The notes beneath the pieces were generated by a model. The model worked only from the letters and a program-made list of their open reading frames with translations. It was not told the origin of the DNA and did not search any database. The position numbers were made by a program, and so were the translations under genes. Shown here in pieces: positions 3,251 through 49,800 of a stretch of 64,000 nucleotides of DNA. The stretch is from assembly GCF_002113885.1 (NCBI RefSeq), contig NW_018405126.1:84867-148866 (forward strand). Reading direction: 5' to 3'. Position 1 is the first letter of the stretch. Each line of letters starts with the position of its first letter. This DNA is from Mizuhopecten yessoensis. Lineage: Eukaryota.

Positions 3251-4598
3251 GTAGTGTTTTATTTTATTAGCTTTGCGTTTGCACGACAACACAAGAATAT
3301 TGTAGATTAATTCGTGAATATATGTGCAGGACATTACATATCCGATTAATAGTGCAAATGATATATGTGTATGTTTGTCTCGACGTAAACATGAAAGTGA
3401 ACATTCTTGTACACACACTTACTCACTTTCCGTACCCGATATAATATACTGTGATTATCCCCATGAACACTGTATAAATGATAATGGTTTCTTCCATAAG
3501 AATGTCCATACATGTAGCACACACGCATGACAAACGCTTGTTATTGTTCAAGTCAATTTAGTAATTTCGCATTGCGGAAGTAATATTCCGGAAGTGACAT
3601 TACGTCATATGGTGTTAACTCTTCCAGTTCAAAGGTGTGAACAGTTTCAGGGGTGAATGAGTTAATCTGTCGTAAATGGGACCGCTACTCTATCATTTCA
3701 TAAACTACTAGGTTTCTGACTTACAATGAGCAGAAGCGAGATCCATCCGGGTATGTTGATAACAAGCTCGTCGCTGGATAAGACTGGAAAACCCGTAACC
3801 AAATATTTTCTTTTCACTCAAATGCACTTGTGTGCAGAAATAAGTACACATACAGTGTTAGCTCAGACAACATGACACGCGTGACTATTGGGTGACGCGT
3901 GTGACGGTCATTTAAATAATAAGGGGAATTTATATAGAATTTCAAAGGCACAATAGGTATTCTAGAATTGTGGCATGACAGCGTTAAGGTGTAATGGTAA
4001 TCACTCACCTGTAACGTTTGCCCCATCAAACAGCCAATATCTTACTGTCACCATTAAACGCATTCACATTTTAAAAATTGAATTAATGTACTCTTTATTG
4101 AATTAATGTACTCTTTATTGAATTAAACCTCTTTTTACTATGGACATCGCTATTAAATAATGGCTAGTGAATTAATACAGCATTGCTCATGTAAGTTAAG
4201 ATAGTGACCAGGATGAGTTGTTCTTTAAGCGAGAAAGATGTTAAGGAGGGAGATGACACCTACTGTAGCTGCGATAACGTAGCTTTCTATATTGCGTCGG
4301 GCAGAGGAGGCCGGGTATTAATATTAGTACTAGTCACCTACCTGGCCGGCAATACACCCATACCTGACAATGAGCCATTCAACATCCACAGTAGCCAAGC
4401 ATCAATATCATCCAATACTTCCTATCCTATTGTCCTTTATAAAACTGTCGGCCTCTGTGTGTATTCCAGGACAAATGTAGTAGAAGAGCTCGGTGAAAAT
4501 AGCATATATTTAGTATACTAACAGCTTTGCTAACATAAATAAGCGAGTTAAAAGTTTTCCTCTCATTCCTGTGCGTATCTGACAGAACTGTCCACCGT

Positions 4599-17175: not shown

Positions 17176-20100
17176 TCATTCCCGGGATTGATAAAACAAA
17201 ATATAACCAGTCTCTGAGTTTTTCTGTAAATCCGAAGGCAATCCGTAAAAGTCTTCTATAGCATTGGAATCAATTTTCTGGAAGAGAAATAAATGTTTCA
17301 GAAATATCATAGACCTGTAAGTCACAGATAATCATGACATTCTCAAAGCAGATTTCAGCTAACACTTCCCATGTATTAGCTGAAACCAATGCTTTTAAAC
17401 GTTAGTACCTTACAGAAACAAACTTTTTTCACAAGAGAATCACCGGGGTAATGTAATCAGGGTAATGTAATAGTTAATACTATACTATTTAATCAAAGGG
17501 AAGGAACTCTGTCTCATGCTAGTGTTCACAAATAATACAGTTAATACTATACTATTGAATCAAAGGGAAGGAACTCTTGTTTCATGCTAGTATTCATAAA
17601 CACAATTAGAAACTAGAAATTGTTGGTAACAATCTGACGGACTTTTCATCACAAACCTTTTTTATGCTCGTGGTTTTTATCTTCTTTGAAGAAAAGTTCA
17701 AGTTAACCATATTACTGAAAGAAGCTTTGTTTTTCGTTTAAAATTAATCAAAATACTGATACAATGGCAAAATTGAAGAAAAAATAAATAAATCATAGCT
17801 CCCTTACCTTTATATAACTTGAGTCAAGAGTCTCACTATTTTTACAAACTGATTTTCACACAATACATGTACCTTTAACTTTTCTTTCGAAAACTTCCTT
17901 GACATAGTCTCTAAAATGTTTGGTAATTAAAATTCATTTGTTGTTTTCTTGAATTTTGGTCAATGTTTTTAAGATATTAAAATGTTCAATCCGCTTAAGA
18001 TTTTCATAACTATATTTTCTTGAATTTTCAAAATCCCCAAAAAAAGTTGTACTTTTTAATTTTAACTTTGTTCAAAAACCTTATGCACGGAATATGGTTT
18101 ATAGGAAAACCAATTTTACGCACTCAATTAAAAGAAAACACTTGTATATTGATATTACGCAACCTTATTCTGGATGATTGTTTAATATGAAATGCGAGAT
18201 GGACTTACATCAACAATATCATCGTCAAACAGGAACCAGAAGCCGTCACTCTTAACAATACTGATGTAGTGTCCTCGGTTGAGGCTGCTGCCGATATGAA
18301 TCACCACGGCTACCAGGTCGTACATTCGGTCAGGGTTACAAGCGTCATCCGACTAAACACAAATACGTTTCATTTTAATATCTTTACTTTCCTATAAGCT
18401 TAAGAAAAGTCCAATTCTAATTTGTTAACGTCACAATTAATAGGGTTCAAATACGAATTAGAATTTTTTCACGACAACCTACACATGTCCCTGTCTGTGT
18501 ATTTGATTCGTTACACCAGCAATCCATAATGTAATACATTTTTTATTTTATGAAAAAGAGACAAAAACTATATTTGTTAAAATATATACTTTGGAATAAA
18601 GTGAATTTATATCATAGTTATATGATAGTCTTAAGTCTACTAGAATTGGATTGGTCACTTACTGTATTAAACAATCGTAACTCTAAGGGAAAGACAACTC
18701 TGTATGACAACTTGGTAAATCGGTTCATCTGTTCCATGTACTTGAACCTCTTCAGGTGCAGAGCCAGAATCTGAGGCAACTTTTTCACTCTCATCCTAGA
18801 GAACAAACAACATAGGGTGAATTGGTCTTCTTAGAATGTGGTTAACTCATTCATCCCTGAAATTTCATAATGAACTATTCCAAACTTTGAAATGGAAGAG
18901 TTCAAATGTGTCTTCAGGGGTGAATGAGTTAAATAAAACCAAATGTACAATATTGCAAAATTCACATCAAGTCATCGTATTAACGTAATTCTGACTGGTA
19001 ATGACTTATATAGTACCGGTATATGATGACAAACAAGAAATTTTGACAATTATCATACAATATATATTTAATACTTTAAGCAGTTTTCTAAATTTTGAAA
19101 AGGAATATTCTTATTTTATAAACATATTTTTCACAAGTTCAAAGGACCAGTTAGGTTAGGTGATTCACTAGTCCTTGCTGAAATCTACTAGTCCAGGACT
19201 AGTGGACTAGTGTTAGCGTCGACTCCTGCTGTGGATTCTAACCTTTTCTGGGCCTCCTGTTTACTACAGCATCCCTCGCAGTAGTACTTGTGCTCTGCAC
19301 AAAGGGTCTCTGTGCTGCTGAAACCCCGCAGACAGTGTGTGATAGAGGTGTTCTGTTCTACGTCTACAGACAGGTCTAGGAAATCCTCATCCTTACTGCT
19401 GACCTGCAAAACACAAAATCCAACTTGGATTAACATCAACAACTGACATAATGATAGATATTCTCTTAAAAGTGGTGGTTTGTTGTCAGTTGATCGTGAT
19501 AGACAAGGTATATAGCGTACAACAATAATGTAAGTCAATTTCCAAATTTCAAAAAGTCACAAGGTCTTTCATATAAACACTGTACATATGTGTGTATCTC
19601 AGAAATACTGGGTAGAGCTGAGGTTAGGACCGGAGTTAAGCTGACTCAAGTGTATTATGACTAGAGATTGACCTTCCTGAGCATGGACTTTCTCTATCCA
19701 AGATAAAAATTGCTGTAAGCCCAGTCACTCTGCTGAACACAGGTATTGAAGAAGTATCTTTGATTCAAGTACTCCCACTTAAAAGATGTTCCAACTTTAA
19801 CCACAGAGAATTAATCCTGTAAACTGTTTCTTCTTGAAATACAGTATTCAAAAGGTAAGCAAATGCTTCAAGTGATACTCAAGTAAACAATCCTATGGGC
19901 CTACAATACCCTATTTAAGGATAAGGAAAGGTTACATCTACCCATTGCAATCCCATAAATCACAGAGGCTGTTTAGAAGTACGTCAAATTGTCTAAAACT
20001 TTTGAAATCATATGTTTTGAGACTATATAATGATATTAGGTCAACAAATTATATCAGTAGAGCTCCGCTGTGCATTGACTATACCACTCACCCTCTCCGT

Positions 20101-23100
20101 CTTCTCACTGTTTTACCCATTCACCCCCCAAGTCACAATTGAACCTTACCAAATCAAAGACTGGGCAAGTCCATTTTAGAAATATAGGGGTGAATGGGTT
20201 AAACAAACCGTTTTCATAGTTCCAACAACTGATCATTTTGGTCATTATTTCCACTTGTTCCCTGTGTGCACTTCTACCATATCAGTGTATACAAACGTCC
20301 CCGAGTGTCTACAACTTTTCCTCTCACAGTTCATACATATTGTCTTCAAAAGTTCTGTCTCAAATAAACAATCCCTATGACTTACCGTCTCACAGTTTAG
20401 ACACCGTGTCTCGTTCGTGAATGTCCCCTGGAACAGGTCCTCCACCCATGTGGGTTCTGACTTGGAACCAGGCTGGTTATCACTCCCTCCATTCTTTGGC
20501 TTAGTTCCCTGTTTTTCTGTAATTATTAAATAGGACGTTTAATGGTACTTTATAGGAGTTTTACTTGATTTCTGTGGTGTTTATACTGTGTAAGGGGTGA
20601 TTATAAGGTGTATGCCTTAATACATGTATAGACATTATATAAAACCAAGCTCTTGATTGACCATGATTAGGGTTTCCGATAGTCATTTTATCTAAGTTTA
20701 TTTGCTACTTTATCAAATCTGTATCAACTGGTCTTCACTCATATACAATAATATTACATTTCAGATATACACTAAACATGGATCTCCATAACATTGCATG
20801 ATTAGATATCTGGACAGCTGGTATATAAAATCTACACATCAGGTCATTTATCATCCCTATATATAGAAGTCAGTGAGCATTCACATACAGATGTCAAAGA
20901 GTCCCCCTGTATAGAGAGGTCAGTGCACCCCCCCCCCCCCTTCCCGGTATTAAGGTCAGTGAACCACCTGTATACAGAGGTCAGTGATGCTCATCTGTAA
21001 AATATAGAGATTAATGGTCCCATCTATGTTTAAAGTGGTCATTGACACACACACCCTCCCCTACGTATACAGATGTCAGTGATGCCCATCTGTACATGGA
21101 GGTCATTGCTTCCCATCTGTACATAGAGATCAATGGTTCTACCTATTGCCAGTCATTGGGTGCTCGGGTGATACACTGGATAATGCACTAGCCTTTCACC
21201 AAGGTAACGGGGGTTTGATTCCCAATCACACATAACGGTATTAAGTAGCCTGTTCGACTAACTGGGTTTTCTCCAGGTACTCTGGTTTCCTCCCACGTTA
21301 AGACCATGCATGCTACCATCTGGGCTAACAAGAGTGATTTATTTAAGTTGAAATAACTTGTTACATGATTGTTGTAAAATAAATAAAGTTTATATTTGGT
21401 CCCATCCTTAAAAACAATGGTCTATCATTGATCCACCCTGTGTTAGTGTACTAAGGTCATCGAGTCTAGTAAAATGTACCTTGGAGCAGCTCGGACACCC
21501 TGTTGAGTAAGTAGTTGAGGAACTCATGTGCATCTTGCTGCATGTAGTTGTCGAAAAGTTCTGTGCAAGGAAAGATGCATCTTATTACTACCAACATAAG
21601 GTGATTTTACTTAAAAATTACCATTATGACTCAAACACATAGATTAGCCCTTCATATGAATTGTATCATTCTTCACTTGGCATTTTTAACATCAATTTGC
21701 AAAAATTAAATCTTTTGTCTGTAAAAAAGTCTTGTTTTTCCCTAAAAAATATTTTAACTCATAAGTAAAATGTAAGACATGGAAATGGAAATTCAGAGTA
21801 AAAAGCATCACACTTTCAATCTGCCCCGATCAGCATATGCATACCATATTCCTTGCGCAACCTTGTGATGAATTTCTTTGGAGCAATAGTTCCGACCTTC
21901 TTTTTCTGCGTTGCTATGTTGTAGAAGAGGTCGGCTAGACAGGTCAGCAGGCTCTCCTTCTTGTTGTTCTTCTGGTGTTGTTTGTACTGCAACACCTTCT
22001 CTCGGAATGGCCGACAGAAATACAGTGCTTGTAGAACCGAATTACAGTAACAGGTGTTACCAAACTGAAAATACACGAAGTCATCTAACTCTATAGTTTC
22101 TAATATGGTCACTTCAACAATATATTATATATATATGCACAGGTTCAATTACATGGCAATGTAATTAATTAAATCACAAATCCAGCATCGCTGACCTCTG
22201 TATACAGGGGGATCAATTTGAATAAGTTTTAATTGATGTGAAAAGCTTCTTTACTATAACGACAATTTAACATGTTCTAATATTTTCAGTCAAAAGTTTT
22301 AACTAGAACTACCTGTATAACATTTTAAAATTATATTAGAACTTTGGTTGCTGGATTTGTGATTGAATTAATTACATTGCCATGTAATTGAACCTGTGCA
22401 TTTGCCTGCAGGCATTAATAGGCGCAAGGAAAGACAATGGCCATGAGTGATAGAGGTGTGCATTTAAAACTGCAATAACCCAAAATATTTGAGAAAATCT
22501 GATACAGTTTAAAGATTTAAGAACTAATTTGATAATGGCCTACTATTGAAATAAAATTTGAAAAACTTGAAAATGGATAGTAGTACTTTACAGTTTATGA
22601 AGTTTAGTGGATAATAAAGATAGCCACACTCCTGGGAAAATCTTTGCTCAAGTGCAGATAAATAATCACCTGGTTGATAGTTTTCCCAGGGGCCGACACT
22701 AACACTATAGTCCGCTAGTTCTGGACTAGCAGATTTCAGCAAGGACTAGTGAGTCACCTAACTAAACTGGTCCTTTGGACTTGTGAAAAATATGATTATA
22801 AAATAAGAATATTCCTTTTTAAAATTAAGAAACCTTTGCTCAAGTGTGGATCACCTGGTTGATAGTTTTCAAACTATCTCAATCTGCGTGACAATGTTCC
22901 TTAAATATTTATTTTATGGCTGTTTTGTGCCATTGTCATCTGATCTGTGTTCCCATAAATTATGCAGTTTGTAACTAATTAAGAAGATGTCAGGCCAAAC
23001 AGCAACAAATGAGAACTTAGAAAATCTGTTGAGTGATAATAAGGACAGTAATTATAATATAAAAATAAATATATAAGATATTTGAAGATTTTTTTTAGCT

Positions 23101-24820
23101 AATGTGTATTTTTTTTTGCCAAAATGTTGGAAAAAAAAGGATTGGATGCAAAAAAATACCATTGGTTGGGAAACCAGAAGAAAAAAATATTTTTCTGCCT
23201 TATCAAAATTATTTGCTAACAGCATTTTACAGTGAAACACATACATGATGAAAATGAAAGCATCGACTAACACAGAGCTGAGCTAAAGAGAAATTCCCTC
23301 TAGCTCGAAGCTAGAAGACGACCGTAATCCTATATGCACAATTAAAACCTGCAACAAATGTATTAAAGTACATTGTACCTATTCAAAATTAAGAATGATT
23401 CTATAAACCAATACTTACATTCACTAATCCGAAGTAGTGTTCATTTGCAGGCAACTGTTCGGATCCAATTTCCTTCTCTAGCTGGGAAGCATTGTTTCCC
23501 TATAAAGAAATTAAGAAAATAGTGTCAGGTGATGAACAAATGTAATTTCACTTTTCACTTTCAAGAAATCACATAACAGTAATTGTGCACTTCGAAAATG
23601 ATTTACCTTAACTCCTTTCTCTCAACATTTCAAATTTACACAAAAAAAAATGGTTTCCTACCTGATGAATAGAGTCATCTATTGAAAACGCTCATGATAT
23701 ACATTTTGTATAACCAACTCAATTCATCACTCCAAGAAACTGACAAAAGCAAAACTCATTCTTTGATTAAAATTTGATCTGGCCGAATGCACTATTGTAA
23801 TTAACTTCTTGTCACCTGTACATGTCTGTCTGGTCTTTGCTTAGCTAGATCTAGACCTCAATATTTTTGCCAATTTCATACTACAGAACATCATCGGGCT
23901 GTGACATTTTACCAGATACATTAAAGCAGATATATTAACGGGCAGTAAAACCTGATGAAAAAAATACTAGTCTCATCTGGCTTATCAATAAGCTGTGATG
24001 AAATGTCCGACATACAAATGCAAGATGATCTAAGAATCGGGTGGGGTGGGGTCATGTGAGAGTGGATGGTTGATAGGGACCACACTGTGTTTTCAGACTC
24101 AATAAACGTGCAGTTACCACGAAGCCTAATATCCATCGTGTAGTAATATAATGTACAAAAGGTAGCTACTTAGTTTTGGTAAGTGATATAATCAAATTTT
24201 ACATAACATATTTTTAAAATCCATATTGACAATTAACAGAATACGTGGCTTTTATATTTTCTAAAAATTGACCTTTAGTTCGCATTATAGTGTAATGACA
24301 CGGACTTAGATAATCTAATTCCGTGGTAATGACCATGATGACAAACTTCAAAAAATATTATTTGAACTGGCGAAGGATCAAATATGTTTCTGAAGGACCT
24401 ACAATGTAACTTAGCTACTGGTCAGTAATAGGACAGTCTCACAAGTCGAAGACTTACAACGTGCGAACAGTAACAATATTATATAACATATGCAACTGGA
24501 ATCATAAAGAATGTACGTCCGGACAGTTCGATTTAAAAACATTTCATTTTATTTAAATCAATAAGCGACACACATTATTTTACACAAAATCAACCGAATA
24601 TGTCTTCATTTCTTGTCAGCAGTCAGCTTTTGAACATACTGTCAGCAAGGATCAAACATCAATGATCTGATCATCAGGACGGAAATGAAAGTTCCACTGT
24701 TACGTATACATGGTTATATCGTCAAACCAAGAAAACCTGAAACATGTCTCGACAACGCTGTGCGAACCGGCGTCCTCACATAACAAATAACTAAATGACG
24801 ATATCAAAACTACAAACCAT
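17176..24820 (-). CDS. USP46: Ubiquitin carboxyl-terminal hydrolase 12/46 (USP12/USP46 family), 9 coding exons, 351 aa
   Basis: Exons on minus: 24818-24820 (ATG only), 23419-23499, 21845-22064, 21480-21560, 20386-20516, 19243-19403, 18663-18795, 18209-18352, 17176-17277. All introns GT-AG with compatible phases; total 1056 nt. Cys box [24 protein letters not shown], Zn ligands CLNC/CEGC, His box RGHY, FDDD and C-terminal [10 protein letters not shown] match the family. USP12 versus USP46 cannot be separated (probable single invertebrate co-orthologue). The ATG-only first exon is the least certain part. Confidence 0.95.
18842..18932. mobile_element. About 90-bp TTAA-bounded MITE (USP46 intron 6)
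   Basis: TTAACTCATTCATCCCTGAA...TTCAGGGGTGAATGAGTTAA; interior shared with the 12651 copy. Confidence 0.7.
19085..19228. repeat. About 145-bp dispersed repeat with an inverted copy at 22687-22832
   Basis: AAGGAATATTCTTATTTTATAA.CATATTTTTCACAAGT.CAAAGGACCAGTT...CACTAGTCCTTGCTGAAATCT matches the reverse complement of 22687-22832. Confidence 0.85.
20860..21140. repeat. Degenerate about 30-bp tandem repeat (USP46 intron 4)
   Basis: Recurrent TGTATACAGAGGTCAGTGA..CCCATC-like units. Confidence 0.6.
21158..21396 (+). mobile_element. tRNA-derived SINE with V-domain-like core
   Basis: Degenerate A/B boxes (GGGTTTGATTCCC), central GGGTTTTCTCCAGGTACTCTGGTTTCCTCCCAC, and AT-rich tail TAAAATAAATAAAGTT. 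Confidence 0.7.
22136..22400. mobile_element. MITE with about 52-bp terminal inverted repeats (USP46 intron 2)
   Basis: TGCACAGGTTCAATTACATGGCAATGTAATTAATT.AATCACAAATCCAGCA and its near-perfect reverse complement at the other end. Confidence 0.8.
24292..24332. mobile_element. Putative DNA-transposon excision footprint (27-bp core, 7-bp direct repeat)
   Basis: gtaatga CACGGACTTAGATAATCTAATTCCGTG gtaatga. Confidence 0.7.
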
Positions 24821-24869
24821 AGTTGTGGATCCTCACGGTACCTAAAATGCTTCAACAGTCTTCGTTTAT

Positions 24870-25002
24870 TTACACCGGCGCCATATTTGTTCTCATGTCA
24901 TGTCTAATAATGGATCAGAAGCACTTGTTCCGGAAGTTACTCCGACTTTCATTTGAGTTATTTCCCTTTATTGGCGAACAGCCGTTGTTCGGAGTAACTT
25001 CC
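24870..25002 (-). promoter_or_regulatory. Probable USP46 promoter/5'UTR elements
   Basis: YY1/TISU-like AAATATGGCG forming uORF ATGGCGCCGGTGTAA (24884-24870), ETS motif CCGGAAGT at 24930-24937, and a perfect 14-bp inverted repeat at 24932-24945/24989-25002. Confidence 0.5.
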
Positions 25003-26635
25003 TTTCTTTCGAATATTGATTTACTTTGAAGAAGAAAAAAATCTGATAATTTTGATCACTTGAAGTTGGATGCCTGATACTAAGTTCTTAACTAGGGGAG
25101 ATAATTCAGCTAGTAGTAAAATGAAATGGAGAAATTCTTCATAAAAACGCAGGTTTTAAAAAGAAANGGGGAGATGCACTTAAGAGCAAAATATTAACAC
25201 TAAGTGAACAAAAAAAAATGAACTTAATGGCAACAAATCACATATTAGCAAAATCTTTTGCACTTAAATACAAAAAGCACATAATGCAAACACTTTTTCT
25301 TCATTATGTAGTGATCTTTTCACATTATATACCTTCGCACTTTCGTACAAAGTACAAAAAAATATCCTCATACCCCTTTCAACAAAATGAATGATTCCAG
25401 TACCCATTTTTGAAACGTTTCTAACACTTCAATGGAAAAAGTTGTTTTTGCAAAACAAAAACAAAAAACATGTTTCACTTCATTGATTTTTTTTGGCTCT
25501 AAAGTGCGAAAGAACAAATAGTTAATGATAACTACATAATGACTAAAAGCTATGTAAAAACCATTAAGTGCAAAAGAACAATTATTTAAAGATTATCAAA
25601 ATATGACTACATAATGACAATAAGTTTGCCATTATGTCAGGTTTTAAGTCCGTGACTGATGTACAGAAAACGTTTATTTTACCTCAAGTGAAAAAAGGTC
25701 GTTTTTGCACTTAGGTATAAATTAAAATGACATAATGGCGAGTACTTTTTATCATTATGTAGTGATCTGTTTACAGCAAATACCTTTGCCTTTAAGTTAT
25801 GCAATACAAGGTACGTACTACATCGCTCATTGGTTAACCAATCCTAGAGCTTGATTTTAGAACAGTCGAAAAAGACTTTGGTGGGGGAATTGCTTGTTGG
25901 AAGTCTCTTCCTGTTAATTTTACTTAATGTTTTTTACACTTAAGTGCAAAACTTTTACACTCAAGTTAAAAAGCACATATTCAACATTACGGTTTTTTTG
26001 CACATAGTGCAAAAGTTTTTTCGCTTAAGTAGACATCAATGAGGTATTTTATCCTAAAACGGCCGTCCATAGTCTAAAGCTTACAATGGGCAAAATACCT
26101 GGTCTTGTTTCAATTGAAAATCTCAGCAGTGACATATATATTACGATGCATACAGTATATTGGGCACACGAAAAAATGGCAACGAAGAGTAAAAGTCACT
26201 TTTGGATGATGGTAGAAAAACATAACCTCAATTCTTTCTAGTTTAGCGAACTTTCTGTAAACCGAATTTGCTATGTATACGTGAAACACACATGTTGGTA
26301 TATATAAAAGCCTAGCTAGCATTGACTATCGTATTTCTGTAATATCGGAATTTATTGGAATATCGATATTGGCAGGTTCAGTCCATTACACCGGGCCAAA
26401 TTCGGCCCATGTCATGAAATTGGCGGGAAATCCGACGTTGTATTCGCTATGACGTCATAATTATGCTGAATTCAACATGGGCCGAACTCGACCCAGACTG
26501 TCTGTCTGAACTTTCCCCATTGCGAGGCGGCCACCCAATCTTTCGACAGAAAAAGTTGAATAATCATTGATAACGGACATTTTTGCTCTTTTGTGATTAG
26601 TACGGAATGTGGTATTTCTTCAAATGCCATACTGC

Positions 26636-26662
26636 CCAGAACCACGGATTCCGTGCCAGAAC
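26636..26662. mobile_element. Putative DNA-transposon excision footprint (13-bp core, 7-bp direct repeat)
   Basis: ccagaac CACGGATTCCGTG ccagaac. Confidence 0.7.
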
Positions 26663-27267
26663 GGCTTTATAAATAAAAAGGGGCCGAATATGCTTCGGTC
26701 TCCCCTTCTGGAAAATGTTTTTTATTTACTGTTTCAATATGAAAACGCTTACAGTTTGGTTTTGTATATATACATATTAACACAGCCATCACCATAAAAC
26801 GACACTCTTTTATGAAATATAAAAAATGATTGTAAGCCTTTTCTTTCGTTTCAGACAGAAGTAACATTTTTCATTACATATTGAAGTTATCTCATAATGT
26901 AGACGTTACAATTTGCAAAATTTAAGGAAAGCGTATCTAGACGTACGTATATAATTAATACTATTTACACGTATCTGCTATAATTCATATTTCCTGAAAA
27001 GTTGCCACCATCTATTGGAAAACAAATGGACTGAACCGCCCGGGATAAACAGTAATTTAATAAATAATTTATTTATTGCAAACGGAGTTATATAGAATTC
27101 TGGGGGTCTGATTGGGAAATAAAAAAAAATTGTCTGGCCATGCGGCCTAATATTGTGTTCGTATCCTATTTTTTTACAGTCTACCATGTAATTATAGGCG
27201 TATTATTAGAAAAGCGTTGAAAAAAAAAAGATTTGTGTTCCATAAACACAAATAAATAAATGTCTAT

Positions 27268-27305
27268 ATAACACCACGGACTTAAATCTAATTCCGTGAT
27301 AACAC
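27268..27305. mobile_element. Putative DNA-transposon excision footprint (24-bp core, 7-bp direct repeat)
   Basis: ataacac CACGGACTTAAATCTAATTCCGTG ataacac. Confidence 0.7.
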
Positions 27306-27422
27306 TATCTCAATAAATTATATTTTTGGTCGTCCCTGGCGCTCAATCAACTGTGTGTTTTTGGTCGACGACTGCATCATTCAGGTTCCGTGGCGTATTC
27401 TATGACTACGCATGCCTGACAA

Positions 27423-27455
27423 TTTCCTTTTTCTTCCGGTCGGCCATACTGTAAG
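27423..27455 (+). promoter_or_regulatory. Probable RPL21 TCT/5'TOP transcription start and non-coding exon 1
   Basis: Polypyrimidine tract TTTCCTTTTTCTTCC followed by ETS-like CTTCCGG, YY1-like GGCCAT and a donor (GTAAGG or AG|GTGCGA). Matching acceptor TTTCAG ends at 30456, 8 nt before the ATG. Typical layout for ribosomal protein genes. Confidence 0.7.
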
Positions 27456-27814
27456 GTGCGAATAAAGTTTGTCTACATATTCTGTATTTTCTTCATAATT
27501 CGATCCGAATTTATTGTTTTGTAATACTTAATTGGATGTTTAAACACATATTGGAACTGACTTCATATATATTTGATGTGTAACAATGATTGGAATACAA
27601 GAATCCCCGACAATAAATCGTTGGTTACAAACCACGTGTACTCGGTAGACCTTAAGCCGAATTACGAGTTGAGCCCCTTTGAATCATTTATCTGCTGTCA
27701 AAGCATGTCGCTCATGAGTTGTCGAAGATTTTTGATTTATAATAAAAAAAATAAAAATGGATTTAAATGCATTATATCACTTCAATATAATGCGGTCAGT
27801 ATTCATTTCTAATT

Positions 27815-27966
27815 GCTGCTTCTAAGTTCTCTGCACCACGGGTTTAAGCCTTGTCCTAACTGCAGTAGGGCTTTTCCTGGTGAACAAAGTGCTAGAAATT
27901 AGGTTCTATAGTTGCCAGGCTGTCATTGCAGGAAGGACCTGTCACCACTGACAACAATAAAGCAGC
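27815..27966 (+). ncRNA. Candidate H/ACA-like structured intronic RNA in RPL21 intron 1
   Basis: Two hairpins (CACCA..AAGCCTT/AGGGCTT..TGGTG and GTTGCCAG..CAGG/CCTG..CTGACAAC), an ANANNA-type hinge AAATTA, ACA near the 3' end, and a flanking GCTGCTT/AAGCAGC stem. No target identified. Confidence 0.3.
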
Positions 27967-28117
27967 CAAGCTCTTAAAGGAATTTTTCTTTTGATTACTG
28001 AAAATATATTAAAGCCAGATGACATCTATATGGTCCTGTACATTTAAAACTAGTCTCAAATTATATGATTTTTAGTCCCCAGTCATGTTATATTATTAGC
28101 TCCCAGTGAAATTGTTA

Positions 28118-28150
28118 CTTGAACCACGGAATTAGATTCCGTGCTTGAAC
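28118..28150. mobile_element. Putative DNA-transposon excision footprint (19-bp core, 7-bp direct repeat)
   Basis: cttgaac CACGGAATTAGATTCCGTG cttgaac. Confidence 0.7.
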
Positions 28151-28455
28151 TTGCCATTTTGCACAAGATAAGTGTTGAATACATCAAACTGAAAATTTCA
28201 GCTCTGATGGAACTATACAAAATTCAGAAAAACTGTTGAATCAATAGTGCCAGTAACGGGAGATTTAAAGGAAGAAATACTTGTGTGAACTGTATATAGC
28301 TGGAGTTCAATGAAATGATTAAAATCAATAATAGTATTTCAATGTTTCATTTAAACCACTATACTTGTCAGCAAAGACAAAAATAACAAAGCTATAATGT
28401 GTTTCCATGTAATAATACTGCATACAAATGTTAATAACCTTGAACTGCACTATAA

Positions 28456-28809
28456 CATGTCCAGTACACTCTGCCTATTGAGCTATATAGCTCTATTGAC
28501 CTATCTGAAATAGGTCTTTTGAGCTATTTTCAAGTGATTTTCTTTTTTTAAGGAAAAGTTGCTTTTAAAAGAAGATTGTATCATTAGGTTGATAACATAA
28601 GACATTTAATATAAGTATTCTTTTTAAGAAATAATGATTTTTTGTAGTCACCATTACCAAAACCTGATTGCTTTATGCGACTTTGCTTAAATTTAATGAA
28701 AATTGAAATCTGAGAAAATATAGCTCAATACAGCTATAATTTATAGGTGTATATAGCTATATAGGTCTATATAGCTATATAGCTCAATCGGCAGAGTGTA
28801 CTGGACCTG
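28456..28809. mobile_element. MITE with about 45-bp TIRs (Tc1/mariner-like ends)
   Basis: GTCCAGTACACTCTGCC.ATTGAGCTATATAGCT mirrored at the right end, which is followed by TA. Confidence 0.7.
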
Positions 28810-28811
28810 TA

Positions 28812-29387
28812 TAAGGTGGCAGTACCCAAATCGGATCACTTTTTGCAAAAATATTTGTAAATAAATAAATGTGTCAACAAATCAGTTATAACAATGATGT
28901 AGTCTTAGAATAGATAGCCATGCACCATTTTTAGACTACAGATAATTAGTTTTTAAGTTCAAATAGTGCAAGAAAACGTAATTCATACTCAAATGTCAAT
29001 GTTTTGATTACGTTTTTAAAAAATGGTGAGTGGGACAACTAAGCACTCTGTTTTGGACTATAGGAATAAATTCACACTATATAAATACTTTTTGTCATAT
29101 AAATTCTAAAGGTCATCATAAAATGTTAATATGCTAACAAAAAAATATTCATTTGAAGCGTACGATACTGCAAAATTCAAGCCTTGGTCCGATTTGGGTC
29201 CCGACATTAGCAAAAATGATTGGTGACTTCAGGGAGTTCAAAAAATATCTCAAGTGAACCCTGGGTGCTAATTTCGTTTGTGAGAACACGGGGGTCCATC
29301 GATAGTCTATTTATAATTCCTCCTCAGATTTTTCAATGATTTAATAAAATGATGGTTTGGTGATCCGATTTAGGTACTGTCACCTTA
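28812..29387. mobile_element. MITE with 28-bp TIRs, TAA/TTA-bounded
   Basis: TAAGGTGGCAGTACCCAAATCGGATCAC ... GTGATCCGATTTAGGTACTGTCACCTTA. Confidence 0.7.
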
Positions 29388-29976
29388 CAGATCTATACAA
29401 AGGAGAGCAAAGATGAAATTAAAAAAGTTAAATTCAACGTGAATATTTCTGCAGCCTTACTCTCAGAATATAATGTCACAAGTCAGCACTGTAACTGTTC
29501 TACTAATCTGATAAGGTTAAGAAAAGTTTTTTATTGAGTTGTGTCCAATTTTTACAAACCACTCAGCTTGCTGATGATCATGAGCCAGCTCCACTTGTTA
29601 CAGAAAAGGGTCGTTGATGGAATATCAGTAAATCAAACAAAACAACTTCACCCTTGTCTCAGACTTGAAATAAGTGCCCATGGAAAACATAAGATAACAT
29701 ACATGTTGACCACTGACTCACAGCCTTCTTTCATGAACACTAGATTTGTAAAATGTACAATAGTGTATCCTTTTGTTTTTCATTCAGTGAAAAAAATAAT
29801 GATATCAAAAACATGCTCATTTAATGTTTACCCTGATTTTGTTTGGATCGTGGAAATGATAGAAATACTCATTAAAACAAATTATTTACCGACATGATCA
29901 GTTTTCATCCTGACTGAATATGTTGGCGGTACCAAATTATGTCTTAGAACAAAGGGAAATATTTTTATGGTGCAAA

Positions 29977-30047
29977 ATCAATGATGAAGAAATTTTGAAT
30001 CTCGTTAATATGATTATTGATGAAATCAACAAAGCATTTCTGAGATC
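29977..30047 (+). ncRNA. Box C/D snoRNA, SNORD30/U30-like, in RPL21 intron 1
   Basis: C box ATGATGA 29981-29987, 13-nt guide GAATCTCGTTAAT 29997-30009 complementary to conserved 28S rRNA ATTAACGAGATTC, D' ATGA 30010-30013, C' TTGATGA 30017-30023, D CTGA 30040-30043, short ATC/GAT terminal stem. Confidence 0.8.
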
Positions 30048-30464
30048 AGCATCATCTAAAGTTGAGGCTTTTATGTCGGTCCAATAGCTAAGGTCATATG
30101 TTGAGTGGACTTCTTATATAGGACACAACACTGATTTTGGCCAAGATTTGAATTTAAAAAGTGAAGTAAAATATTGTCTTTAAATTAACATTTACAAAGT
30201 AAATATTTAAATTAAATTGTAAATATTGATTTAAAAATGTTCACAAGGTTATACTAAAAACCAAGCCAAAGTGTGCGTGCCATCACTTATTTCAATGGCA
30301 CAGCACTATAAATTACTTCTATGCAACACATTTGAACTCTTTTAATATCTTAAAGTTACATGTTTCTGGGCAGATTTTATTCAATGATTTGCAAAAACCT
30401 TATTTGAAATGCAGCTGTTCTTTAAAATGTTTAAACAATATTGCATTTCATTTCAGAAGGCATC

Positions 30465-33400
30465 ATGACGAACACCAAGGGATATAGGCGCGGTACGCGC
30501 TACATGTTCTCCCGTCCATTCAAGACAAAGGGAGTCATTCCATTGTCCACGTATATGAAAATATACAAAAGGGGAGACATCGTTGACATAAAGGTAACGA
30601 GTTATGCTACACTGAATACCTTAGTTTGTCCTGTATCACATTGGTTTGTTTTATCTAAGAAAACATCTTAAAAACGATGGGACACTAATTGTGAAACAAG
30701 GTTATCAATTTATATTATCTCTCTTTTTAATATTGATGTGAACCCATACCTTTTAACATCCAATCGGGGGATAAAACCCAAACTAACCGTAGGTGAAAGG
30801 CAAGTGTCCCATATACTGCACCATCTGACCATGGCCACCAGATATACGTTAGGAAGAGGTTCGATACTTGGAAAAAGAACTTCCTCGTATTTGAAGACAA
30901 GGTTGTGCAAAAAGTTAAAAGGTCTCCAAAAAGACACATTTGTGTTGAAAAAATTGCTATATCAATGAATGAAGTTTTTAATGTTGTGCACCATCTTTTA
31001 AAAGGGCCACGGAGCTGTACAAAAGGGTATGCCCCACAAGGTTTACCACGGAAAGACTGGGAGGGTGTTCAACGTGACTCCTCATGCTGTCGGCGTTGTT
31101 GTTAACAAGCGTGTAGGGTAAGATATGTTTTCCATAAGAATATTTTCTAATAAATAATAAGATATGATATCACCAGATTTTAGTTTATCTGTTTTATATA
31201 TGGCAGTTTTTCTGACTTGGACAATCATATTTTTTCTTTCATTGATTGGTCAAACTATATGTTAAGTAAAGGTATTTTCACCATTTAAAAAAATGTCTTG
31301 ATCAACTCACCATTGTCCGTAATTTATTGTTTAAAACCAGACTACCAGTAAACCAAAACAATCGTGCTACATGATTTTAGACCCGGACATTTTCAGCTCA
31401 CCTGGCCCGAAGGGCCAAGTGAGCTTATCCCATGGTGCAGCGTCCGTCGTCCGGCGTCCGTCAACTTTTTCCTTTAAAATGCTACTTGTCCTGAATGGCT
31501 CAGAGGATTTTGACCAAATTTGGTCAGGAGCATCATTGGCCAAAGGGTTCTCAGTTTTGTATAAACGGAGGGTATAACCCCCCTGGGGGCAGAGGGGCGG
31601 GGCCAAATAGGGGGAAAATAGGTAAATCTTTAAAAATCTTCTTCTTCTCAACCAATAGAAGGATTTTGACCAAATTTGTCCTAGAGCATCTTTGGACAAA
31701 GGAGACTCAAGTTTGTATAAACGGAGGGTGTGGCCTCTTTGGGGGCAGAGGGGCGGGGCCAAATAGGGGAAGTAGAGGATTTTTTCTCTCCTACTATACA
31801 AGTGAAGGGATTTAAACCAAATGCAGTCTGAAGCTTGGTCAGGAGCATCATTGGCCAAAGGGTTCTCAGTTTTGTATAAACGGACGGTATAGCCCCCCCT
31901 CGGGGCAGAGGGGCGGGGCTAAATAAGGGGAAAAAAGGTAAATCTTTAAAAATGTTCTTCTTCTCAACCAATTGAAGGATTTTGACCAAATTTGTCCTAG
32001 AGCATCTTTGGACAAAGAAGACTCAAGTTTGTATAAACGGAGGGTGTGGCCCCTCTGGGGGCGGAGGGGCGGGGCCCAATAGGGGAAATAGAGGATTTTT
32101 TTTCTCCTGCTATACAAGTGAAGGGATTTTAACCAAATGCAGTCTGAAGCATGATTAGGGACAAAAGAATCAATTTTGTATAAACTGAGGTGTGTGGGCC
32201 TCCTTCTAAGGGCAGATGGGTGGGGCCCATTAGGGGAAATAGAGGAAAACATCAAATATCCTTCTCCTTTTGTACCGATGAAGGGATTTTGACCAAATTT
32301 GGTCTGGAGCATCATTGGCCAAAGGGTTCTCAGTTTTGTATGAACGGAGGGTATGGTCCCCCTGGGGGCAGAGGGACGGGGCCAAATAGGGGAAAATAGG
32401 TAAATCTTTAAAAATCTTCTCCTCAACCAATTGAAGGATTTTGACCAAATTTGTCCTAGAGCATCTTTGGACAAAGGAGACTCAAGTTTGTATAAACGGA
32501 GGGTGTGGGCCTTCTGGCGGCATAGGAGCGGGGCCCAATAGGGGAAATAGAGGATTTTTTTTCTCCTACTATACAAGTGAAGGGATTTAAACCAAATGCA
32601 GTCTGAAGCATGCTTAGGGAGAAAAGAATCAATTTTGTTTAAACTGAGGTGTGTGGATTCCCCTTCTTTGGGGCAGATTAGTGGGGCCCATTAGGGGAAA
32701 TAGAGGAAAACATTAAAGATCCTTCTCCTTCTGTACCGTTGAAGGGATTTTAACCTAACCAAACTTGTTTTAGAGAATCTTTGGGCAAAGGGAATTGAAT
32801 ATTTATAAATGGAAGATGCAACTTTGTTACTTGTACTCCTTTGATAAACCTGAATGGTACTCAGCAGGTTTTAAATTGAAAAATAAAATACCAGGTGAGC
32901 TATTAAGGCCCCTGGGCCTCTTGTTTCTCTCTCCATCTACATATGTCGTTTGCAAAATCCTGAATAATGCTTTTAAGGATCCCTGTACCACTGCCAAAAG
33001 CTGATTTTGCTGGCAGGACTGCAGCATTTCTGAAATCATATGTGGAAAGAAAATCATACCTTGCAGGGTTTTTGTAAAAAATAAATGAGACGAAGCAAAC
33101 AAAAAATGTAACCAACACCAGGGCCCGTATTCATGAAACCGTTCTCATGCTCAAGCACGGATTCCGTGCTCCAACCAGCTTTCTTGTATCTCACTTAAAA
33201 CAATCAAAAAGTAAAATATAAACAGTGAAAATTGTTTTCGGCTTTAAATCTCTTCCATTTCTTTCCAAATCATTGAAAAAATTATATTGTTTTATTGATT
33301 TATAATCGAATCAAGAATTTAGAGACCTTAATATAATGCAGTGGGTAGGGATCTGTAAGATGAATCGATTGGAATGATCTGAAAGGAATTTAACAAGGAA

Positions 33401-33955
33401 TCTTCCATGTCATATTAATAATCATACCACAGAAATTAAGAATCTAAAGCTTCAGTTTAACTTGTTATTTTCTGTAAAACAGACACCGAGTTTTGCCCAA
33501 GAGAATCAATGTCAGGATTGAACATGTGAAGCACTCCAACTGCCGTCTTGACTTCGTGAAAAGAGTGAAGGAAAACGCAGAAAAGAAGAAGGTGGCCAAG
33601 GAGAAGGGAACCAGGCTCAGCTTGAAACGTCAGGTAGGTCTTGCTTGCCATTAAACAAATATATTAACAGTTAATCATGTAATTAAAAAAATATTAATTA
33701 TCAGTAAATTTACACATGAAAGTTATATAATAATATTTACCTTCCTTTACTTTCCCTAGTACAAATTCATGTTGATGTATGAAGTACATAAGGTAATGCG
33801 TAATGCTTCTCTTAATGATGCATTCTTTGTCATGTTATTTAATAAGACTTTCTGTTGTTTTGCAGCCAAAGCAGCCCAACAAAGCTCATTTTGTGAGCAC
33901 AAAATACAACAAACCACAGCTCATTGAGCCCATCCCCTACGAGTTCATCGCCTAG
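30465..33955 (+). CDS. RPL21: 60S ribosomal protein L21 (eL21), 4 coding exons, 160 aa
   Basis: Exons 30465-30593, 31005-31117, 33483-33633, 33866-33955; 483 nt; GT-AG with consistent phases. Translation [23 protein letters not shown]...[18 protein letters not shown]...[13 protein letters not shown]...PIPYEFIA is typical eL21. Confidence 0.97.
30735..30835 (-). mobile_element. Truncated SINE head (same family as 21158) in RPL21 intron 2
   Basis: Minus strand GGTGCAGT...CACTTGCCTTTCACC...GGGTTTTATCCCC aligns with the head of the 21158 SINE. Confidence 0.5.
31390..32926 (+). mobile_element. HINE-like element in RPL21 intron 3 with an about 155-bp higher-order tandem array
   Basis: 5' TTTCAGCTCACCTGG...GTGAGCT and (CGTC)n; 3' CAGGTGAGC plus AGGCCCCTGGGCCT palindrome and CTTGTTT; about 9 internal monomers of three alternating types. 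Confidence 0.8.
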
Positions 33956-46864: not shown

Positions 46865-49800
46865 ATGTTTATTACGGTGATGATTGTAATATGCACATAT
46901 ACCGTACCTTTTGGCCAGGTAAGTGAATGATTTAGCTAATAAGATAACTCAAATACTTGTGTGTAACATTTAAAGAATAATACCGCAGTTTTTACCTAAC
47001 AGAATACACTGACGCTCATTTACGGTATTCCACGTAACACTATGTTAGTTTCGTTTTGGGTTTATCAGCTACTGATAATATGACGATGATTCAGAAGTAG
47101 TTTTTATGATATTAAATGAGAAAGTTGTGAAATGTTTAAGTCTTTTTAAATGTCTTTACATGATACAACTCCACGCGCTGACTTATACATATTACTAATT
47201 AGTCTGTAGCCTAGTTACGTGGCGCAACGTATACATTATGTATGTCTGTTTCTGTTTTTATCAATAATGAACCATATGTTATACGTAGAAACGCCCAGTA
47301 CGTGCGATATATATATATATATATACATTGTATATTCATATTACTACTCCTGTCGCTATGTGGGCTAATCATCGTGTATACGTACGGTAAACCAACACCA
47401 TTCAGGAGTGGGGGGCACATACATGTGGTAAAAAAAAATGTATTGGATCATTGGTGAGTTATGCAACGGGATGGTCTAGTCACAGATTTTTAAAATAAGT
47501 ACGGAAACGTTTTGAAATCACTAATTTATTTTTTAAATCCTATCGACCTAGGCATCTCACAAAATATGTATATATATATATATACATTATCGTCATGGTT
47601 AACCCTGGGAAACACTCGTATTCAAAGTGTGATCAATACAGGTCGAACAAAGAATGCGTTTCGCTGGTAGAACAAAGCTTTAAAGTGTGATCAATACAGG
47701 TCGAACGAAGAATGCGTTTCGTTGGTAGAACAAAGCGTGTGTTTGCCTGTCTCGGTGTTATCTATATATATATACACCACTGTGATTCAAACTTCCGTGT
47801 AGCTCTAATATCATTGGCTATATTCTATGTGATGCCAATTACCGTAAATTTGGGCACAAGAAACCGCACGCGTGTGATCAGAACATTTAAATCAACCAAT
47901 TGTTTATAAGATATAGAAGGACAATGACATCGACTCATTAAACAGTGTTGTACAGATATAAGATATAGTTATTTAAGGGGTCTGATTTCAACATCAAAAA
48001 CTGTGTCAGCTGGCAAGTGGCCTACTCTTGTGTGCCTTCACAAAAAATGTGGGTCATTTCTTGAATACTTAAGTGTGTCACAGACAAATGTATTCTAACT
48101 ATCACACTCGGTAGAGAGCGTTAGACTGGTAAACCAAAGGTACAGGGTTCGATTCCTGGCGGATGCGTACTAATCATATTGACATCTGTTATAGAAAGGA
48201 TCAAATGTATATGTTTAGTATGAATAGTTGGTAATTGAAAATGCTAAATAAAAAAATTATGATCAGGCTCACATTAAATAGGATACACGAACCCACGACT
48301 GGTACAATGTATGTATGTGAACATTGATCTTGATAACTGTTTGTTAAAAGATCAGGGACCAGTGTTTTAATCGAGAATTTTTTTTGCAACCTGTACTTTA
48401 AGATTAAAACAAATGAAATTCTTCATAAGATCCATACAAATGCTCACAACCTTGAAATACCGTACACCAAACTATTCCATTTTAAATTCCTATTTTTGCA
48501 GTTCTTAGATGAAAGACCCAATTAAGTAAGGTTAAGTCTAAGGAGGTATCAGGGGGAATCCCACAGTTATAGCTCGGCGACTAGTACACATGTAACAGTA
48601 CCAGTAATACAAACATATTTATATTTAGTATACAATTCCTGTTGCCCTAAGATTTATGTCATTGTATACCTAAACACGTATATAGGATGTAACATATCTG
48701 ATGCTCATCACGAACAAGGACTAATCTGTATGCTATTTTATACGTAATAGGTCTTGCGATTTAATGACATACACGGACCTATGTTTTTGCACAGTGACAC
48801 TTAATTAATGTGCCCTATTTTACCTTATAGTAACTTGAAGCCGTTATTCCGTGCTTGAAATGATTTTTGTCCGCCATTGTTAATCGGTTTGAGATCCCGG
48901 GATGGAAATTAAACAACTAATTTATTTATCAACCAGTTTTAATTTACATGCACAGAATAATTGCAGGCAAGCAATACAAGATTTACTGCACATGTACTGT
49001 AATTTCTTTATCTAACTTCTCAAGTAAAACCCGATAATTACGAGGTTTCTCACCAGACATCTTTATGTCAAAATGGGCGGATTGGTCAAGTGGTTAACAC
49101 TTCGGCCTTCAACGCAGACGGCCGAGGTTCGATCCTCGAAGTCGTCGTACGCATGGAATATCAGAGAAAGTGGTTTTCTCTTGCCCACACAACTCCAACA
49201 ACCCAGGTGGAGTAAGAAATGGTCTGGGGTGCATGTTGCGGTATCTGTGCTGTAGCATTCAAGTGAGTTGGCACTATAAAAGATGCCGTTGGATGCACGG
49301 TCCCACTACAAAACAGAACACAATACATATCCAGCACACACGCAGGCATACACACATAAGGAAATATTAGCCAAGTGGCATAAGACTAGTAGTAAGCGCA
49401 TGATAAGGCAGCTCCTGCGAATTCCTCAAAATGAATTAATTAATGTATATGCTAATTGTTGTAAGTGTATATCTATGTAATGTAAAGCGCTTTAGAGTGC
49501 CTTATGTTAGCTAGATAGGGCGCTTTATCAAATGTTGCATGTTATTGTTCTTATAAAATGTCTCAGTCTGGTGTTAGGGTCAGTGGAAACTCGGGCTATA
49601 TACGATAAAGATGACATTTATTGGTATGGCAGCATCCCTCCTCCGACTAATCGTTTGGTCAATGTGTGTCGTCATGTTAGTTTTTCCTCGTTCATTTACT
49701 TAAAGAAAAAAATAATACACAAGTTTTAAATACATTTGCTTGTTTTCGTGCAGGTGACAGCTATTTCATCAATTTGTACATGGAGAGGGAATTATTTGTC

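Follow-up and report, generated by a model that had tools for sequence, protein, structure and literature searches.

The closest described counterparts of the sequences reported here are the P{wa} junctions at Drosophila melanogaster P donor sites, end-joining products collected in Table 1 of PMC2895639, the mechanism being treated in PMC7776569. Like the junctions tabulated there, the scallop cores that we describe keep both target duplications and as many as 17 nt from either end, and are closed by short-microhomology, blunt or insertion-bearing joints. Like Drosophila P, in those parts of PMC7776569 that concern its ends and its transposase, the parent family has CA...TG ends and a transposase in which a split RNase H carries a GTP-binding insertion domain. 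The differences are that Drosophila P makes an 8-bp duplication whereas the scallop CACGGA family makes one of 7 bp, that the two ends of the scallop family differ from each other within their first 17 nt, that a scallop sister family has a limit of 19/18 nt, and that no THAP domain was detected. The P{wa} junctions of PMC2895639 are also experimental products, whereas the scallop scars are inherited genomic copies in their thousands. A 7-bp duplication, occasionally one of 8 bp, is reported in the relevant part of PMC4168063 for Galileo and 1360 of the Drosophila P superfamily, where the target consensus is GTANTAC/GTATTAC as against GTWWWAS around the scallop cores. Galileo is given long, internally repeated terminal inverted repeats (TIRs) and a THAP domain, while in the scallop family the TIRs measure 29 bp and the N-terminal domain is a different one; the resemblance is one of features alone, and we do not claim descent from Galileo. 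Our literature search, confined to the main texts of openly accessible papers, turned up neither a survey of P scars across a genome nor an account of the CACGGA family, the two text matches to its end sequences falling in papers on unrelated subjects.

The window, by which we mean the whole 64,000-nucleotide stretch of Mizuhopecten yessoensis DNA that was analysed, holds four short cores that are very probably the joined tips of a P-superfamily transposon, flanked on both sides by its duplicated 7-bp target and most likely left by germline excision and end joining. The first-pass annotation had listed four such cores between perfect 7-bp direct repeats that differ from site to site, and all four are found at the following positions, among these features:

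18185..24820, minus strand: ubiquitin-specific protease gene, its UCH domain encoded by exons between 22124 and 18185, and an exon at 23500
24292..24332, plus strand: scar 1, duplication GTAATGA at 24292-24298 and 24326-24332, 27-bp core at 24299-24325
26636..26662, plus strand: scar 2, duplication CCAGAAC, 13-bp core at 26643-26655
27268..27305, plus strand: scar 3, duplication ATAACAC, 24-bp core at 27275-27298
27426..33651, plus strand: ribosomal protein L21 gene (PF01157), ATG at 30465
28118..28150, minus strand: scar 4, duplication CTTGAAC, 19-bp core at 28125-28143
33149..33175, strand unassigned: doubtful copy, 13-bp core at 33156-33168, no matching 7-bp duplication
48834..48860, strand unassigned: doubtful copy, near-duplicated CTTGAA(G/A) around 13 bp

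Each core can be resolved into two transposon tips. Scar 1, whose core is the commonest in the genome, joins the CACGGAC end to the CACGGAA end with 15 nt kept of each, overlapping at the 3-nt microhomology TAA; scar 2 joins 6 and 8 nt of the ends with a 1-nt overlap; scar 3 is either a blunt joint of 10 and 14 nt or a 24-bp microhomology product with one substitution; and scar 4, which runs the other way round from scars 1 and 3, joins 14 nt of the CACGGAA end to 6 nt of the other with a 1-nt overlap. The protease gene, which we take to be USP12/46-like, has a predicted start codon at 24820, and RPL21 has a predicted non-coding first exon with a pyrimidine tract at 27426-27439 and a GT donor at 27456. 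With the starts of both genes placed from sequence alone, scar 1 would lie in the first intron of the USP12/46-like gene, scar 2 in the stretch that separates the divergent pair, some 780 bp upstream of where RPL21 starts, scar 3 some 130 bp upstream of the RPL21 start at the pyrimidine tract, and scar 4 in the first intron of RPL21. The pattern (N7)CACGG.{0,50}CCGTG\1 occurs four times in the window and in none of 200 block-wise dinucleotide shuffles, while a generic scan for cores that have inverted ends of at least 5 bp and lie inside a 7-bp repeat of whatever sequence returns the four scars and one unrelated site, against 1, 1 and 2 sites in three shuffles.

Four cores gathered in 4 kb about a divergent gene pair, all of them present in contigs from four further sequencing runs and belonging to a family with CpG-rich flanks genome-wide, might be expected of regulatory palindromes, protein-binding sites selected at promoters. 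We give this idea almost no credence, for the spacing of the half-sites ranges from 1 to more than 30 bp, every core sits in its own 7-bp duplication, and transposon ends fully explain the sequence; some cores may nevertheless have been co-opted later. Contigs of the four runs span scars 2-4, with no 20-31 bp gap in the pieces listed, and scar 1 is spanned in one run, contigs of the other three stopping at the right end of its core. No empty allele was seen at these scars in the contigs of the four runs, which as contigs drop rare variants and one of which may come from the assembly's own source. The fifth and sixth, degenerate copies of the first-pass annotation are not established. The flanking 7-mers of the core at 33156-33168 disagree at 4 positions, and this core sits midway in another high-copy repeat (~33117-33200), other copies of which share the central stretch; it is at most an old scar carried by its host repeat; the site at 48834 has the right-hand TCCGTG only, with no CACGG start.

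Genome-wide, cores of the form CACGGA…TCCGTG number 3,537, against 358 for a reversed-pattern control, or roughly thirty for every element end that survives, 107 ends of long elements lying within 1 mismatch of the CACGGA termini. Both ends are carried by 17 elements of 1.4–6.3 kb, with 29-bp imperfect inverted repeats starting CA and duplications that are perfect over 7 bp in 12, have one mismatch in three, are 8 bp long in one and unmatched in one. A longer element with the same termini, as the first-pass annotation had foreseen, thus exists, and two family members encode a P-type transposase. Around the cores themselves a perfect duplication is of 7 bp in 58 of 101 cases and of 8 bp in one, and the target preference is palindromic, as in other P-superfamily elements. 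Some scars have been copied passively within other repeats. Among the paralogs of one host repeat, 13 are empty with a single 7-mer and 17 are filled with a scar and its duplication, the size difference being 36 = 29 + 7 bp in 16 of the 17; the expected empty site with a single 7-mer is therefore seen in paralogs of a repeat rather than, as had been proposed, at orthologous loci. At one long element, L090, a contig joins the flanks across the element and one duplication, an empty form that may be an allele or a paralog, as the repetitive flanks do not separate the two. A full element and a scar at one site in different haplotypes were found neither at the window's sites in the four runs nor at L090, so the step from element to scar is read indirectly.

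Each core joins two different parent tips by microhomology, a blunt joint or filler. Among 87 independent cores, which come in 23 different lengths, exactly 17 nt of one end is kept in 27 and more in 2, and exactly 17 nt of the other end in 21 and more in 3; since core selection favoured long retention, the pile at 17 nt is inflated and only the drop after it is unselected. Of 295 cores in which 17 nt of one end survive, the 100 listed first were counted by eye, and parent base 18 was present in 11 of these and base 21 in none. The minority beyond 17 nt, which has GGG at 18-20 in 5 of these 100 cores and reaches 22 nt at the other end, needs a second route. Of the 1,416 cores with intact 11-nt ends, 1,219 are 22-34 bp long and 197 are 35-64 bp, the extra length in most of the latter being filler and not parent sequence. 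The ceiling near 34 bp that had been predicted therefore stands as a limit of 17 nt per end and falls as a limit on core length.

It could be argued that the cores are themselves mobile, micro-MITEs moved by a P transposase and amplified from a few masters: one 27-bp sequence is far commoner than any other, each insertion would likewise yield a 7-bp duplication, and comparing empty with filled sites cannot by itself separate a scar from a tiny insertion. We consider this very unlikely. Joining at the longest (3-nt) microhomology between the tails is predicted to give two products, and the commonest 27-mer is one of them; the 87 events have their 23 lengths; variants that mark subfamilies among the long elements recur in the cores, the TAGAATAGA end being one; and TIR positions 18-29, conserved from family to family, are missing from the cores. 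In Drosophila, according to PMC7776569, a helix-turn-helix domain binds the inner half of the TIR. Internal deletions made with no transposase cutting, through slippage or hairpin deletion between inverted repeats, or else aborted gap repair, would also shorten an element to its tips; long copies are rich in internal deletions, and cores with 18-23 nt of an end fit short templated synthesis. Such deletions give no reason for a limit at 17 nt, nor for its move to 19/18 nt with a displaced motif (see below), the 22-34 bp cores predominate with mostly filler in the longer ones, and aborted gap repair requires excision first, all of which makes this origin extremely improbable. The reading as P-like excision scars is instead supported by the parent, the 17-nt limit per end and the empty paralogs.

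The transposase remnants in the two family members, C2226 and C660, match PF21787 (E 2.5e-08 and 2.6e-14) and PF21788 (E 1.3e-21), as well as the Drosophila P transposase (E 2.9e-09), and their only low-E match among solved structures is P transposase 6p5a. Both copies are broken by frameshifts or stops, so cleavage is not readable from them: C2226 has both aspartate motifs (FDE, CDG), the part read stopping at an assembly gap before the third, and C660 is broken at the third catalytic motif. A PF21787 match at C76738 lies outside the nearby family element and belongs to a distant transposase. Two relatives annotated merely as uncharacterised proteins, with neither ends nor scars given in their entries, P0001 of Ylistrum balloti and P0002 of Mizuhopecten yessoensis, show 68% and 77% identity across the N-terminal region; P0001, complete at 927 aa, has PF21787, PF21788 and PF21789, its fold matches P transposase structures 6pe2/6p5a (Foldseek E 6.8e-23), and D-D-E motifs are present in it and in the C5526 sister element. 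The first-pass annotation had expected a THAP-domain P transposase, and what was found is a P transposase with no PF05485 match in either copy, in P0001 or in the six closest relatives scanned, the domain being present in 1 of 22 proteins. In the N-terminal place of THAP is a conserved four-cysteine domain, modelled confidently (pLDDT 95), for which there was no Foldseek match at E 0.001 or better, no Atlas match of at least 0.9, and a best Z of 5.8, to unrelated folds. The RAG1-like domain PF12560 occurs in 2 of the 22 relatives and is absent from the CACGGA family.

Sister P families in the same genome leave similar scars, and all share the inner TIR motif G(A/G)GA(T/A)(T/A)GGCAAC; TIR positions 18-29 are conserved between families and absent from cores. 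One sister family has a retention limit of 17 nt. In another the motif lies 19 and 18 bases from the tips and the scar limits are 19 and 18, so that scars put the inner cut at 17/17 nt for two families and at 19/18 nt for a third. The limits shift with the displaced motif, and cut depth therefore likely follows it; given this correlation, the inner motif, and not a fixed depth, would likely set the place of the cut. We envisage that insertion at a GT-W-W-W-AC-like 7-mer would duplicate the target, as is seen in paralogs and long elements; that the transposase would make a staggered cut, at the tip on one strand and 17 nt further in on the other, where the inner motif has its edge, so that the chromosome keeps 3' tails of 17 nt, as suggested by the 17-nt limit and by Drosophila biochemistry; that trimming of the tails would be followed by joining, whether at microhomologies of 1-3 nt, by blunt joints or through filler, by a pathway we can only propose; and that the resulting scar of 13-45 bp may be tolerated and persist where a multi-kb element is lost. 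Long copies contain many internal deletions.

The promoter targeting put forward in the first-pass annotation has partial and indirect support. Scar flanks are CpG-rich (o/e 0.89 vs 0.65, p 0.005 at block level) and hot spots are common to several families (10 vs 0.44 expected), but none of eight promoter motifs is clearly enriched in the flanks, the top ratio being 1.9 for the E-box, on 18 against 22 counts. The CpG o/e of long-element flanks, 0.79, does not differ from that of scar flanks (p 0.28, n 17), and these figures thus do not show that promoters have selectively lost long elements.

Taken at its widest, the case is one that we favour with some reserve: the inner cut of P-type transposases would fall at the edge of the bound motif and not at a count of 17 bases from the tip, with an overhang of 17, 18 or 19 nt according to family and end. 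A THAP-less, four-cysteine clade would have done so in thousands of events in the scallop genome, and the pooled scars of several families would make both a fossil map of chromatin open in the germline and a natural library of end joining in an invertebrate. At their length these P scars would probably escape routine repeat annotation, and in CpG-rich hot spots they would be a neglected supply of small insertions close to genes and would document how germline breaks were repaired. In several distant P families the genome reveals a cut depth that shifts with the inner TIR motif, and this offers a direct, testable rule for where the inner cut is placed.

The four palindromic cores with CACGG...CCGTG ends that had been reported between perfect 7-bp direct repeats in the window were found at 24299, 26643, 27275 and 28125, and the repeat-plus-core pattern occurs there four times, against none in 200 shuffles. 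Two further proposed copies are doubtful: that at 33156 lies inside another repeat without a matching duplication, and that at 48834 retains one end only. High-copy repeats also occupy the RPL21 introns (33117-33200, 31400-32900 and 28400-29350), where they are visible as depth peaks. We conclude that the cores are very probably excision footprints of a P-superfamily family; this reading, put forward in the first-pass annotation, is borne out by a parent element with a transposase, a drop in retained sequence after 17 nt, and empty sites.

Across the genome of the window (G000, 988 Mb), CACGGA and TCCGTG separated by 0-30 nt occur at 3,537 sites, a count that takes in passive copies, as several scars sit within other repeats, versus 358 for the reversed control. 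Cores with 11 exact bases per end number 1,219 at 22-34 bp and 197 at 35-64 bp, with none in either control. Of 101 distinct cores from the retrieved loci, the 7-bp duplication is perfect in 58 and has one mismatch in 20, and a single core has a perfect 8-bp duplication. The consensus 7-mer, GTWWWAS, is near to the Galileo target GTANTAC (PMC4168063, in excerpt). Scars have been passively multiplied within at least three other repeat families (loci L001, L003, L004 and L314; the L015 group; L032, L034, L037, L041 and L043).

Extending both core ends yields the parent's imperfect 29-bp terminal inverted repeat (TIR), which has 107 occurrences within one mismatch. Eighteen end pairs were fetched, and the 17 lying within one stretch were analysed; these elements span 1.4-6.3 kb, have internal sequence in common, and are flanked by duplications of 7 bp (12 perfect, three with one mismatch), 8 bp (one) or no match (one). 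None of the 17 carries a long transposase frame. A genome search with PF21787 gave 25 matches, two of them inside the parent family: one downstream of an intact TIR on contig C2226 and one upstream of the other TIR on C660. Both copies are broken, are 90.6% identical over 2.3 kb, and match PF21787, PF21788 and the P transposase of Drosophila. Their nearest protein matches are uncharacterised and come from scallops, which makes a bivalve the likely host, and a full-length relative is predicted to fold like P transposase. Thus the longer element expected to share these termini exists and has a P-type transposase, but the THAP domain expected with it was undetected. The N-terminal domain of this clade has four invariant cysteines in a 55-sequence alignment, and comparison of its modelled structure gave no clear match. 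The transposase N-terminus holds tandemly repeated 21-aa units that vary in number (L124:3600-3900, L127:5100-6000); they occur also in the related M. yessoensis transposase P0002 and are missing from P0001 of Ylistrum balloti. Several distant P-type transposase matches adjoin frames with putative helicase-like motifs (L130, L137, L139).

In each core, the first bases of one parent end are fused to the other parent end in reverse complement. In 87 independent events (duplication with at most one mismatch), exactly 17 nt of the first end are kept in 27 and more in 2, and 17 nt of the other end in 21 and more in 3; the search patterns inflate the height of this peak and leave the drop after it unaffected. 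The joints comprise 38 microhomologies, 10 blunt joins and 39 with filler or later mutation, and the commonest core (27 bp) is one that joining at the longest microhomology shared by the tails would produce. This anatomy is the same as that of P{wa} repair junctions in Drosophila (Table 1 of PMC2895639, seen in part), where the staggered P cut leaves 17-nt 3' tails (PMC7776569, in excerpt). Among the first 100 of 295 cores holding 17 nt of one end, counted by eye, the parent's next base is present in 11, three further parent bases in 5, and four in none. A minor class with exactly GGG beyond the cap (5/100 among the cores listed) might reflect a different cut position or a short stretch of templated synthesis:

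G000 C459:1384745, core with GGG beyond 17 nt
G000 C2187:90191, core with GGG beyond 17 nt
G000 C2941:1169722, core with GGG beyond 17 nt
G000 C3027:47712, core with GGG beyond 17 nt
G000 C3225:863421, core with GGG beyond 17 nt

At L160:1501-1548 (G000:C657:711404), the filler of a parent-family scar is the tip of a sister family, and the same 3-kb locus holds two sister-family scars, one less than 30 bp away.

Empty sites with a single 7-mer, as anticipated, do exist, in paralogous copies of a multi-copy repeat: in the best 30 of 41 matches, 17 hold the scar and 13 the single 7-mer, and filled minus empty copies equals 36 bp, the core plus one duplication, in 16/17. The window's four cores are present in contigs of four more sequencing runs, and these contigs showed no empty allele.

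At other P transposase loci the tips differ, and the inner TIR motif, G(A/G)GA(T/A)(T/A)GGCAAC, is shared. In the CAGAGACGTATAAT family 17 nt precede this motif and scars are capped at 17 (13/48 ends at 17, 1/48 at 18). The member of the clade most likely to be intact and autonomous is the following element, whose transposase frame, after an assembly gap, runs without stops over ~790 aa:

L132:721-9218 (G000:C5526), P element of 8,498 bp that has a TIR at each end, encodes a transposase and is flanked by a perfect 7-bp duplication

Here 19 nt at one end and 18 nt at the other precede the motif, and a cap at 19 was predicted ahead of the scar search. The search pattern asked for no more than 16 nt of the first end, of which 19 nt were kept in 14/28 scars and 20 in 1/28; at the other end, 18 nt were kept in 10/17 and more in 2/17. 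The caps therefore follow the motif, and we infer that the enzyme uses this motif to position its inner cut. Such positioning fits the Drosophila P structure (PMC7776569, in excerpt), which has a helix-turn-helix domain bound to the TIR's inner half and disorder at nucleotides -14 to -18. The inner motif recurs in further P-like families, whose tips read CAGGGAC... and CAGGGATG... (L142:9516, L268, L006, L258, L315); these families too have scars between 7-bp duplications (L010, L041, L128, L222, L261). MITEs of ~1 kb with 7-bp duplications belong to the CAGAGAC family (L222, L224, L245).

Between a ubiquitin protease gene and RPL21, whose start sites are predicted from sequence, the window has a CpG-rich stretch, and the scars fall within it or alongside it; CpG o/e is mostly 0.75-1.3 over 24.0-27.5 kb, versus 0.2-0.5 in the protease gene body. 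Genome-wide, scar flanks (82 loci) have a value of 0.89 against 0.65 for 20 arbitrary 10-kb stretches (p 0.005 at block level). Scars also cluster: 11 additional cores were seen where 0.88 were expected, a tally in which two pairs count twice, and 10 parent-family cores lie beside 42 sister-family scars against 0.44 expected. The CpG-rich flanks and the clustering lend the proposed promoter preference partial, indirect support, and promoter motifs show no clear enrichment at scars. The pattern fits either open, unmethylated chromatin as the target or tolerance of insertions there.

As a kind of product, the footprint is known already from fly experiments, and no genomic description of such P scars was found in the literature searched. 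New in this case are the parent together with its transposase, the empty sites, and a depth of cutting that moves as the inner TIR motif moves. Scars carried inside other repeat families, moreover, give those subfamilies a relative age with respect to P activity.
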